Shown: piece by piece, positions 48,685 through 53,362 of the stretch
Layout: the number at the start of each line of letters is the position of its first letter
Numbering within the stretch: position 1 is the first letter of the stretch
NCBI GenBank assembly: GCA_048938855.1
Contig: JBHLLT010000001.1
Span: 416,124-480,123 of the forward strand
Length of the DNA: 64,000 bases
Source: Promethearchaeota archaeon
Lineage (GTDB): Archaea; Asgardarchaeota; Lokiarchaeia; Sigyniarchaeales; SOKP01
Reading direction: 5' to 3'
Notes under the pieces: model-generated
Database searches by the model: none
Told to the model about the DNA's origin: nothing
What the model saw: only the letters and a program-made list of their open reading frames with translations
Position numbers and translations under genes: made by a program

Positions 48685-49887
48685 TTGATAATCTCTAAAA
48701 AATCTGTTTTTTTTATTTTAATCTCTGTTTTCTTTATTTATATTTCCATTATGCTTTTAATAACATTTTTACCTTTGTATCTTGAATTTTTAGATATAGA
48801 ACCAGCAGGTATAACATTATCAATGACCATTATTATGTTCACCTTATTCATTTTTCCCCCATTGTTAGGAAAATTCTCAGATAAAATTCAGAACAGAATT
48901 TATTTTATCTATCTGTTCCCAGTTGGTATTGTTTTTTCTTTAATTTTACTTATTTTTACTAAAGATATAATATTACTAAATATCATTTTATTTATGTTTG
49001 GGTTCTTTATTTCATTTTTAACTGTATATCTTACTCTTTTTAGTGAATTGGTTCAAAATGATAAAAAATGGGTATCGTATTATAATGCAACCTGCTCAAT
49101 TGGAAATTTTATGGGAGTTCTAATTGGAGGTATGTTGATCTTTCTTTTTACAATTGGGAATATTTTCATCTTTACCTTAGCTTCTTTCTTAATAGCTATA
49201 GTTTTTATTGTATTCATTAGAGAAGATAGAAATTTAATATTAGAATCTAATAAAAAAGAATACTCGAATTTTAAAAATGGAAAATTAAACAATCTCTTCA
49301 ATGAAGAACGTAAAATTTCGAATTCTATATACTATAGTCTTTTTTTTAGGAGTTTTGCAATAGTTCCAATCTTAAATGTTCTTGTAAGTATCTTGAGTCC
49401 TCATATAGCTACTACTAGCATTGCTTTTTTAGTTGGTTTAAACCCTCTACTACAATTTTTCTTTATAATTATCATTGGAATCATATTAAATGAAAAAAAC
49501 ATAAAGATATTTCTGATTTTAGGTTATCTATTATCTACTATTATTATAATCGGCTATATTATCTCTTTTGATTTTTGGAGTGTTTTTATTGTTCAAATAA
49601 TGCTCGCTAGTGGTTTTTCAATGTTTTGGATGGCAACAATTGTTTACATAGCTCAAAATTCAAATCCTACTAATAAAGGTCGCTTTATAGGATATGCCAC
49701 GACTAGCACTTATGCTGGCACAACATCAGGTGGACTCTTTTTTAGCTTATTATTAACTGTTTTCCAAGGTAATTATGATCTATCAATGGTCTTTATGATA
49801 TTATTTCCAGCAATCTCAACTATGATAATAATCTTCTTATTCAAAATACCACAAAATAAGTCACATAGTAGCCCAAAAAGCGTATAA
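48685..49887 (+). CDS. MFS transporter, tandem paralogue
   Basis: GKFSDK, YIAQN..P.NKGR..GY; TTG start behind AGGAG. Confidence 0.9.
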   Translation: MIISKKSVFFILISVFFIYISIMLLITFLPLYLEFLDIEPAGITLSMTIIMFTLFIFPPLLGKFSDKIQNRIYFIYLFPVGIVFSLILLIFTKDIILLNIILFMFGFFISFLTVYLTLFSELVQNDKKWVSYYNATCSIGNFMGVLIGGMLIFLFTIGNIFIFTLASFLIAIVFIVFIREDRNLILESNKKEYSNFKNGKLNNLFNEERKISNSIYYSLFFRSFAIVPILNVLVSILSPHIATTSIAFLVGLNPLLQFFFIIIIGIILNEKNIKIFLILGYLLSTIIIIGYIISFDFWSVFIVQIMLASGFSMFWMATIVYIAQNSNPTNKGRFIGYATTSTYAGTTSGGLFFSLLLTVFQGNYDLSMVFMILFPAISTMIIIFLFKIPQNKSHSSPKSV

Positions 49888-51828
49888 GTTATGAAGAATT
49901 GCATTTGGTTTATCTGGTAATATTTCTAATTCTTTTCTTATCCAATCTGAAATCCATTTATATTTTACTTTAAATCTACTATCCATAAAAATTATTGCCC
50001 CTTTATCAGAAACTTTTCTGATAGGTCTTCCGGAAGCTTGATTTGCTCGTTGTACTGCGGGATATAAGTAAGCAAAGTTCCAACCTTGTCTATTAAATAC
50101 TTTATCATAGTAGTTAATTTTTGCTTCCACTCTAGGAGTTGGTAAATGATAGGGAAATCCGGCAATTATTACAGAATTCATATAATCTCCAGGATAGTCC
50201 TCTCCTTCAGAATTCCTCCCTCCACATACGCCTAATAAGACACCGCCTCCATTTTTAGCCATAGTTTTGAAACCATCCACCAATAAAGAATTTTCAGATG
50301 CTGATAATCCTGATTCTTCAATGAATAGTTTTTTCCTATTCTTTTCTACAATATTCTCAAATCCATTTTTTAACAATCCTTTAAGAATTGTATAGGAGGC
50401 ACAAAAAACTCCGATATTTGCTGGAGTACTTTGGAGCACTTCATCAACTTTTTCTATTATTTTTTTATACATAGTTGGATTTCTACTATCTCTTTTAGTA
50501 TCTACGCCCTCAGTTATAATAGCTTTAATATTTTTATTATTAAATGGTGAATCTGCAACAATTCCTTTATAACTCTTGCCACATTCATTTAATCCCATCA
50601 AATTATTGTACACATATGGATTTACCGTTCCAGAGAGATTTAAACATGTATATCCATTTTTTAAAATAGGAATTGTAACTTCTCTTGGATCTAAGGCAAC
50701 GATTTCAAGTGATATTAACCTCTTTCCCTTATTTTCCTTTGTATTATAACAAAAGAAGTAATTTTCTGATGTATAAGATTCTAACCACTTCAACCAAAAT
50801 TCTGCTAATGAACTAATAAAATCTCTTGAGATTTCTCCATTTGCCACTTTTTCTTCATGAACAGATAAGCTAAAATCATAAAGTTCATCAATAAAGATCT
50901 TAAATCCATTTAGATCAGAAAATCCTAATTTTTTATATATCGATGTTAAGTATCTATCTGGTTCTATGGCTTTTTCATTAACTCGTAGATTCTTTTTCTC
51001 TGTTTGTAATTGATCTAATAATATTTGTACGAAACTTTGCATTAAAATAGGTGATCTATACATTTCAAGATCTTTTAAGCATATTTTTAATGAATATGGG
51101 GTAATCTTTTTTGAATTAATTTCAGTTGCAATATCAATTATATTATGACATTCATCTAACACAAGAATACAATTTTGGAGTTCTTGACCTATAAATTCTA
51201 AAAAAGATTCACGAATATACGGATTAAAAATCCATTGATAATTGCAAATTATTACTCTCATTCCTTCAAGTAAAAATTTACTTAAGAAATAGGGACAGAA
51301 ATTATGTTCCTTACAGAATCCTATTAATTCTTCAGCGTCAATAGGTTTATTAAATAATTCTGGTGCGATTGATAAAGGATTTTCACTTTGTCCTTTCTTT
51401 TTTAATAAATTTAGAAAGTAAAGACAATTCCGGTTTTTTCTTAGATCGGTGCAAACAGACATTGCTTCTCTTGGATTTAACTTGAGAGATAATAATGTTT
51501 TATTTAGGCACATTTCATTCCTACCTCTTATTGAAAGACCATTTAAGTTGACTTTAAAATTGTCAGTAATTGTTTTTTGTGAAATTTTAGTCAATTCCTT
51601 AATTATTCTACGATTTTGAGAATGGGTCCTGCACATATAAATTATTTTTAGATTTTTCTCAAATGCTAAAGGAAGTAAACCACATAATGCAATAATTGTT
51701 TTACCTGTACCATTAGGAGCTGATAATAAAGTAATCTTCTTTAATCTAGAACTTTCTTCAATTTGACTAATGACTTTTTCTTGATTTTCTCTGAAATTCT
51801 CGTAAGGGAAAAAGGATGAATAATTTAT
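49861..51828 (-). CDS. xpd: XPD/Rad3 Fe-S DNA helicase; start extended to ATA at 51828
   Basis: FPYENFRENQ (Q motif), APNGTGKT, Fe-S cysteines, DECHN, SGT, SEGED, QASGRPIR. Confidence 0.92.
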   Translation of the reverse strand: MNYSSFFPYENFRENQEKVISQIEESSRLKKITLLSAPNGTGKTIIALCGLLPLAFEKNLKIIYMCRTHSQNRRIIKELTKISQKTITDNFKVNLNGLSIRGRNEMCLNKTLLSLKLNPREAMSVCTDLRKNRNCLYFLNLLKKKGQSENPLSIAPELFNKPIDAEELIGFCKEHNFCPYFLSKFLLEGMRVIICNYQWIFNPYIRESFLEFIGQELQNCILVLDECHNIIDIATEINSKKITPYSLKICLKDLEMYRSPILMQSFVQILLDQLQTEKKNLRVNEKAIEPDRYLTSIYKKLGFSDLNGFKIFIDELYDFSLSVHEEKVANGEISRDFISSLAEFWLKWLESYTSENYFFCYNTKENKGKRLISLEIVALDPREVTIPILKNGYTCLNLSGTVNPYVYNNLMGLNECGKSYKGIVADSPFNNKNIKAIITEGVDTKRDSRNPTMYKKIIEKVDEVLQSTPANIGVFCASYTILKGLLKNGFENIVEKNRKKLFIEESGLSASENSLLVDGFKTMAKNGGGVLLGVCGGRNSEGEDYPGDYMNSVIIAGFPYHLPTPRVEAKINYYDKVFNRQGWNFAYLYPAVQRANQASGRPIRKVSDKGAIIFMDSRFKVKYKWISDWIRKELEILPDKPNAILHNLYAFWATM

Positions 51829-51916
51829 TTTAGCACACCATAAATTAAAATATAATTTTTATACTTCAATAGAATTTATATTGCTATAGACTTTATAAAT
51901 TTAAAAATTTATAGTG

Positions 51917-53362
51917 TTAATCATGTAATATAGGGTTTCTTGCCGCTTGAACAGCATCTAATCGCTTAACATATGTATTATGAGGAGCAGTTTTAAGTAT
52001 TTCAGGACTAATTCTTGCTTCTTCATAAATTTTATTCATTATTTTAACAAAGTTATCTAAGGATTTTTTCGATTCAGTTTCAGTAGGTTCAATCATCAAT
52101 GCTCCTGAAACAATCAATGGAAAATAGATCGTGGGCGCATAAACTCCATAATCAAGTATACGTTTACCTATATCTTCAGTTGTAATTTCATTAGGCATAT
52201 TTCGATCAGAAAGTACAAACTCATGTTGGCAGATCCGGTTAAAAGGAAGAAAAAAATTCTTTTGTAAGAGAACTCTTAAATAATTTGCATTTAAAACAGC
52301 TATTTGGCCAACTCTTTTTAAACCTTCAGCTCCTAAAGCTAAAATATAAGCGTATGCTCTAATAATAACGCCAAAATTACCCCAAAAGGCTCGTATTCTT
52401 CCAATTGATTTATAATTGTTTTCTTTACATATAATTCCGTTTTGAGTTGAAATTAAGCAAGGTTCTGGAAGAAATGGAACGAGCTCATCTATAACTCCAA
52501 TAGGTCCTGATCCTGGACCACCGCCACCATGTGGAGTAGAGAAAGTTTTATGCAAATTCAAATGTATAATATCAAAACCCATGTCTCTAGGATGACAAAT
52601 TCCCAACATTGGATTTAAGTTTGCTCCATCATAATAACATAATCCACCACTTTCATGAACAATTTTAGTGATTTCCTTAATTTGTCTATCAAATACTCCT
52701 AATGTATTCGGATTGGTTAGCATTATACCGGCAACATCACCTTCTTTCATGGCAAATTCTAACTTATCTAATGGAACTTCTCCATATTTATTTGATTGTA
52801 TTTCTATTATTGAGAATCCCGCCATCCTAGCAGAGGCCGGATTAGTTCCATGAGCAGAATCAGGAACAATAATTTTATTCTTTTTAATGCCTTTACTCTC
52901 AAAATATTTTTTTATCATTAATAAGCCAACTAGTTCTCCATGAGCTCCTGCTGCCGGTTGCATTGTAAATCCATCCATTCCTGTTATTTCACCTAATAAT
53001 TCGGAGATATGATAGAGTAATGCAAGACACCCACTATTTTTCTCTTGTAAAGGATGGATTTGAGCAAAACTTGGCATTCTGACTATCTTTTCATTTATTT
53101 TAGGATTATACTTCATGGTACAAGAACCTAATGGATATATACCTGTATCTACACCATAATTCCGATTACTTAAATTAATAAAATGACGAACTATTTCAAC
53201 TTCTGGAATATTAGGAATTGGTAAATCTATTCTTTGGTAAGATTTTGGTAAAATTTCATTAATATCAGTTCCATCAATGTCCATTTCAGGAACAAAATTA
53301 TTCGATTTACTATCTATTTCCTTTTCAAAAATTAATTGAATGTTAGAATCTATGATTTTCAC
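51917..53362 (-). CDS. gcvPB: Glycine dehydrogenase subunit 2
   Basis: YPLGSCTMKYNP, SAHGTNPAS, HLNLHKTFSTPHGGGGPG, EPTETES. Confidence 0.97.
   Translation of the reverse strand: MKIIDSNIQLIFEKEIDSKSNNFVPEMDIDGTDINEILPKSYQRIDLPIPNIPEVEIVRHFINLSNRNYGVDTGIYPLGSCTMKYNPKINEKIVRMPSFAQIHPLQEKNSGCLALLYHISELLGEITGMDGFTMQPAAGAHGELVGLLMIKKYFESKGIKKNKIIVPDSAHGTNPASARMAGFSIIEIQSNKYGEVPLDKLEFAMKEGDVAGIMLTNPNTLGVFDRQIKEITKIVHESGGLCYYDGANLNPMLGICHPRDMGFDIIHLNLHKTFSTPHGGGGPGSGPIGVIDELVPFLPEPCLISTQNGIICKENNYKSIGRIRAFWGNFGVIIRAYAYILALGAEGLKRVGQIAVLNANYLRVLLQKNFFLPFNRICQHEFVLSDRNMPNEITTEDIGKRILDYGVYAPTIYFPLIVSGALMIEPTETESKKSLDNFVKIMNKIYEEARISPEILKTAPHNTYVKRLDAVQAARNPILHD

Follow-up and report, generated by a model that had tools for sequence, protein, structure and literature searches.

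Where does translation of the XPD/Rad3 helicase gene begin in this genome, whose relatives belong to the Promethearchaeota/Lokiarchaeia? In the ORF list of the window, i.e. the whole 64,000-nt stretch of DNA that was analyzed, the gene is called from the ATG at 51636, yielding a protein of 591 aa that starts 64 codons past an in-frame ATA and downstream of both the Q motif and the Walker A motif. The features on which the argument depends, all on the minus strand, are as follows.

49861..51828, minus strand: full XPD/Rad3 helicase gene, 655 aa from the ATA (open frame, Pfam, T. acidophilum alignment, NCBI records)
51634..51636, minus strand: first canonical in-frame ATG, codon 65, probably an internal Met mistaken for the start (ORF list)
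51697..51720, minus strand: Walker A APNGTGKT, codons 37-44, aligning with SPTGSGKT of T. acidophilum XPD
51781..51810, minus strand: Q motif FPYENFRENQ, codons 7-16, aligning with the N-terminus of T. acidophilum XPD
51826..51828, minus strand: ATA, the putative initiation codon (orthologue column)
51830..51841, minus strand: out-of-frame ATG GTG TGC TAA overlapping the Shine-Dalgarno (SD) core, probably incidental (sequence)
51836..51839, minus strand: SD core GGTG, 7 nt before the ATA (16S complementarity, orthologues)
51859..51861, minus strand: in-frame TAA closing the frame, 10 codons above the ATA (sequence)
51876..51881, minus strand: ATATAA, probable TATA box, conserved (upstream alignment)

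Judged by its sequence, the gene codes for a complete XPD, a 5'-3' DNA helicase of the Fe-S, SF2 type. From the ATA the frame reads ATA AAT TAT TCA TCC TTT TTC CCT TAC, with no interruption until the stop at 49861; its product matches Pfam DEAD_2, HBB and Helicase_C_2, and the alignment with T. acidophilum XPD (E 1e-48) starts at the Q motif and continues onward, with four Fe-S cysteines (C107, C126, C135 and C178) falling on those of the T. acidophilum protein, DECH (Walker B, DEAH-type) at 225 and motif VI, QASGRPIR, at 597. Against archaeal XPD/Rad3 (T. acidophilum Ta0057, PDB 4a15, 2vsf and 9p55), the Q motif, Walker A/B, the four Fe-S cysteines, motif VI and the length are all alike, so that the protein is ordinary and the start codon alone is unusual here. 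The Q motif and Walker A belong to the N-terminus only with the ATA start, and in the interval from the stop to the Q motif no codon other than the ATA at 51828 differs from ATG by a single base. The original prediction held that the frame is closed by this TAA with no canonical start before 51637, that both motifs lie in frame upstream of the ORF call, and that GGTG precedes the ATA at the spacing seen in gcvH. These coordinates hold (ATG, GTG and TTG are absent in frame between 51861-51859 and 51636, the next ATG), the motifs are where they were said to be, and the gcvH leader does read GGTG-N7-ATG. As to the surroundings, the upstream neighbor gcvPB has its stop at 51917, just upstream of XPD, and the 3' end of XPD overlaps a convergent MFS gene by 27 nt (window 49861-49887), as it does in L291 and L292. 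The genome also carries a second XPD paralogue (G000:C49, plus strand, 333889-335790), 51% identical, with its main motifs intact and ordinary ATG/TTG starts available.

We gathered 93 distinct XPD loci, 84 of which, at ≥60% identity, were treated as close orthologues. At the start column, ATH is present in 53 of these 84 (49 ATA, 3 ATT and 1 ATC) and ATG in 12; in the remaining 19, an ATG lies farther upstream and the N-terminus is mostly longer. Several lineages (L056/L017, L074-L076, L082, L083, L090, L092 and others) have lost the SD and acquired up to ~80 extra N-terminal codons that follow an upstream ATG. In 41 orthologues including this one (40 ATA, 1 ATT) there is no ATG, GTG or TTG between the upstream stop and FPY, with the frame closed as little as 1-2 codons above the ATA in L019/L062, L007/L038 and L014/L047; in another 12 ATH orthologues the start is ambiguous because a TTG or GTG, mostly the GTG of the SD itself at 6-nt spacing, adjoins in frame just upstream. 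ATA and GGTG recur in ~50 independently assembled relatives, and a pattern search of metagenomes returned 11 contigs, all XPD, which speaks to recurrence only as ATA was built into the pattern. Codons 2-64 have a dN/dS of ~0.145 (52 non-independent pairs), indicating purifying selection on this stretch. The start codon itself is also under selection, as ATA is kept in 49 of 53 start rows vs. only 2 to 27 of 53 at the six internal Ile columns within codons 2-64. Taking the orthologue column, the conservation of GGTG and the dN/dS together, we conclude that XPD translation starts at ATA 51828 with a probability of roughly 0.92; the proposal of initiation at AUA, and the alignment of orthologues suggested as its check, are thus borne out.

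The first alternative is that translation starts at ATG 51636 after all, to give a 591-aa, ATPase-dead scaffold that lacks the Q motif and Walker A. In its favor, no canonical codon precedes this ATG, and public collections contain the 591-aa form. We consider such a start very unlikely, given that 1) codons 2-64 are under purifying selection; 2) 12 orthologues have ATG at exactly the ATA codon; 3) the first canonical codon in relatives ranges from codon 24 to codon 85, so that no downstream start is conserved. The public records are themselves uneven: NCBI entries MDX1797407.1 and MFW9818304.1, from relatives, are 655 aa with a Met start that automated annotation places at this same ATA, while other proteins in their cluster are cut to 591 or 622 aa, and the record for this window is also truncated. 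Since the miscall removes the ATP-binding loop, XPD could be misread as a dead helicase.

With initiation at the ATA as our preferred reading, the next issue is what would place the ribosome there. The 3' end of the 16S rRNA in this genome is GGATCACCTCCT, and it is this complementarity that identifies GGTG(A) as a true SD; the predicted SD:anti-SD duplex is -6.8 kcal/mol for XPD and -8.7 kcal/mol for gcvH. Of the 53 ATH-start orthologues, 52 have GGTG 6-9 nt upstream, vs. 0 of 12 ATG-start orthologues, and in several lineages ATG takes the place of ATA at exactly this codon, these lineages being without GGTG. The closest example of such a swap is L006/L035, with ATG and GCTG, nested among ATA genes with GGTG. 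A FastTree tree has 7 changes between ATH and ATG, and on it the coupling of SD and start codon is seen in 4 well-supported independent pairs with none discordant (sign test p = 0.125); the independent-pair tests (p = 0.125 and 0.5) are concordant but underpowered, and the tree-aware coupling is therefore suggestive, not significant. Further upstream, ATATAA is invariant or nearly so across 20 aligned regions, suggesting that XPD may have its own promoter and a leadered mRNA with ~25 nt of leader containing the SD. Two other leader elements were rejected: the mini-ORF ATG GTG TGC TAA, as the ATGGTG overlapping the SD is found in only 4 of 53 orthologues, and a predicted hairpin of -6.2 kcal/mol in this genome, as the structure is not conserved (0 consensus pairs).

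The original prediction treated XPD as a single-gene oddity, and in this respect it has to be revised, as non-canonical initiation looks to be a genome- and genus-wide habit. Genome-wide, we scored the codons that lie after an upstream stop but before the first canonical start for a GGTG exactly 7 nt upstream. In this genome, the motif precedes 47 of 3675 ATH codons vs. 33 of 21219 other codons (OR 8.3, p ~1e-19); at the frame-equivalent control spacings of 1, 4, 10 and 13 the rates were equal (1.28% and 1.29%). The relative G023 gave 20/2384 vs. 17/14899 (OR 7.4), and 120 kb of G032 gave 0 of 72 ATH at spacing 7, too small a sample to judge. The excess of ATH starts with GGTG at this spacing amounts to ~41 genes, vs. 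32 canonical first starts. Genome-wide, ATT is the commonest start of this kind (28, vs. 16 for ATA). In a pairwise comparison with G023, filtered for antisense frames and N-gaps, a column with ATH, ACG or CTG in one genome may have ATG or TTG in the other, the weak codon usually bearing the SD. Where one genome has a secure ATG start, the non-canonical codon facing it is near-cognate in 15 of 19 cases, and an SD-like motif accompanies 11 of 14 ATA/ATT/ATC/ACG partners vs. 26% for ATG. Of the 66 flags raised in both genomes, many with short extensions are conserved leaders and not starts. Collectively, SD-dependent AUH (sometimes ACG or CUG) initiation appears, from these codon comparisons, to operate in at least ~40 genes (>1%) of the genome, that of aIF1 included.

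Many members of this set regain a recognizable N-terminus, e.g. the glycine-rich loop of an SDR protein and the CxxC of a rubrerythrin. Canonical starts are also lacking from genes that probably encode uS10 (ATA; G000:C70, minus strand, 173845), eL21 (CTG here and ATA in G023; G000:C34, minus strand, 444667), eS26 (non-canonical; G000:C49, minus strand, 212990), phosphopantetheine adenylyltransferase (ATT; G000:C34, plus strand, 111608) and a small GTPase (ACG; G000:C74, plus strand, 20621). Within the window, MFS paralogue 1 (47316, plus strand) probably starts at CTG, its frame matching the TTG start of paralogue 2 (48685) codon for codon and its G023 orthologue having TTG here. Separately, G000:C11 near 2311 holds a very GC-rich stretch in a genome of 30% GC, possibly a contaminant contig.

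These genes also bear on a second alternative, in which ribosomes would use the GTG within GGTG, or the ATG that overlaps the SD, as their start and then enter the XPD frame through programmed +1 frameshifting. This GTG is indeed out of frame by one base, with A- and T-runs behind it. We nevertheless deem this even less probable than the truncated start, as that frame is closed two codons on (TGC TAA) here and in two more orthologues, with stops elsewhere scattered from codon 2 to codon 45, and the overlapping ATG is confined to the few orthologues mentioned above; in addition, the ~40 unrelated GGTG-N7-ATH genes have unrelated spacers with no shared slippery site, and where ATG replaces ATA it does so in frame, in that very column. 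A third proposal, editing of AUA to AUI in the mRNA to be read as AUG, could account for the strong preference for ATA over ATT and ATC at the start codon of XPD. However, ATT and ATC occur at that same codon and ATT is the commonest type genome-wide, neither of which an A-to-I edit could fix, and the leader shows no conserved RNA structure, making editing highly improbable.

One may also ask if ATA has been reassigned to Met as in mitochondria, in which case it would be a normal start. We did not detect TiaS (PF08489), the usual archaeal AUA-decoding enzyme, here or in any of 60 relatives (0/61 Lokiarchaeia), and four archaeal controls have it; a tRNA-Ile(UAU) or other AUA reader was not located, with only initiator and elongator Met CAU tRNAs seen. 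Failure to find TiaS meant that AUA as Met needed testing. ATA is a common Ile codon in this lineage, and across 1470 pairs of orthologues from this genome and G023, an internal ATA lies opposite ATH in 71.5% and opposite ATG in 1.9%, to be compared with 1.0% for ATT opposite ATG and 71.9% for ATG opposite ATG in the same pairs. Internal ATA is therefore Ile, pointing to an effect on initiation and not to a change of code; along with the use of ATT, ATC, ACG and CTG as starts, this leaves reassignment with hardly any credence. Finally, assembly error or a start-loss pseudogene is equally implausible, despite the 7% contamination of this MAG, because ATA is found in dozens of independent assemblies, the near-identical strain L291 among them, which answers much of the original prediction's concern about a miscalled base, and because neither the frame nor the motifs and Fe-S cysteines show any damage, and 53 relatives have ATH, at odds with the decay amid ATG-bearing relatives that it had also envisaged.

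We surmise that initiation at ATA 51828 would proceed by a simple route: the SD:anti-SD helix would fix AUA in the P site of the 30S subunit, and the ordinary Met-tRNAi, which is standard in this genome (CAU anticodon, A1-U72 and three G-C pairs), would accept AUA with a third-position mismatch, leading to a Met-initiated XPD of 655 aa. We are also inclined to believe that SD plus AUA and AUG without an SD are interchangeable routes to a similar, modest initiation rate, and that selection holds XPD at a low output, the level of which we infer. This idea, as well as that of feedback through aIF1 discussed below, draws on two precedents: in S. aureus, AUA and AUU starts rely on extended SDs and yield ~10-30% of AUG output (PMC13009471), while IF3 and eIF1 autoregulate via the weak starts of their own genes (PMC4705826).

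The single aIF1/SUI1 gene (G000:C31, plus strand, 6353; locus L244) has no canonical codon until 80 codons past its first cysteine. In 21 of 21 genus members, an ATT stands six codons before that cysteine with no canonical alternative, and the next Ile codon varies (18 ATT, 2 ATA and 1 ATC); in G006, an assembly gap covers the start. An SD-like GTGAT is found farther upstream than the SD of XPD. In other Asgard families, ATA or CTG candidates occur at the aIF1 start in several, and ATG, GTG or TTG in others. Based on this conservation, aIF1 appears to start at ATT, in an infC-like arrangement. It is conceivable, although we would put the odds at somewhat below even, that in Lokiarchaeia the SD largely licenses weak AUH starts and that an AUU-initiated aIF1 sets stringency by feedback, thereby controlling XPD and dozens of other genes together as an IF3-like regulon. 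Such an aIF1 would offer an archaeal parallel, open to testing, to the feedback of IF3 and eIF1.

There are practical consequences as well. Gene callers restricted to ATG, GTG and TTG would truncate or miss at least 1% of this lineage's genes, a lower bound based on one SD motif and one spacing. SD sequences have been reported to be rare in Lokiarchaea (PMC12993045), a claim that may be biased because the SD-bearing genes are the ones that most often get the wrong start. We found no description of conserved AUH starts in Asgard archaea in the literature, within an incomplete coverage of it. By itself, XPD is one clean example and not a new mechanism; the broader interest lies in what would be genome-scale use of near-cognate starts, obligatory and conserved, by the aIF1/aIF2 machinery inherited by eukaryotes.

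Among the closest known systems is the infC type of S. aureus and E. coli, in which, as here, a conserved third-position near-cognate codon is placed by an SD, kept across species and swapped with AUG. infC starts at AUU in E. coli (PMC4705826), and in S. aureus the SD-led starts are those of infC, ccpN, citZ (AUA) and cvfC1 (AUU) (PMC13009471). The gene of the fidelity factor itself is in the set, infC in bacteria and apparently aIF1 here. In contrast to the four genes and extended SDs of S. aureus, we estimate at least ~40 genes per genome, with a GGTG(A) core of 4-5 nt whose spacing is sharply fixed at 7 nt, and the SD of XPD, a 4-nt core only, is weaker than the extended ones. The host also differs from the bacterial infC systems, being an archaeon with the eukaryote-type factors aIF1 and aIF2; in S. 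solfataricus, 30S complexes bind AUU mRNA without aIF1, and aIF1 rejects AUU (PMC4705826). Eukaryotic eIF1 and Lokiarchaeal aIF1 are both fidelity factors with a weak start of their own, but eIF1 autoregulates through an AUG in poor context (Ivanov et al. 2010, as described in PMC4705826) and by scanning, whereas aIF1 has an apparent AUU behind an SD-like motif. Ribosome profiling of Haloferax volcanii gave near-cognate peaks at ~30% of putative alternative sites, set aside by the authors as possible false positives (PMC7261190); these signals of near-cognate initiation likewise come from an archaeon, but the sites are alternative, unlike the obligatory and conserved start proposed here for a core gene. 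The class of mechanism is known from bacteria; the variant described here differs in its scale, in the constancy of the spacing, in the way SD and start codon trade off, and in operating among archaeal/eukaryote-type factors.
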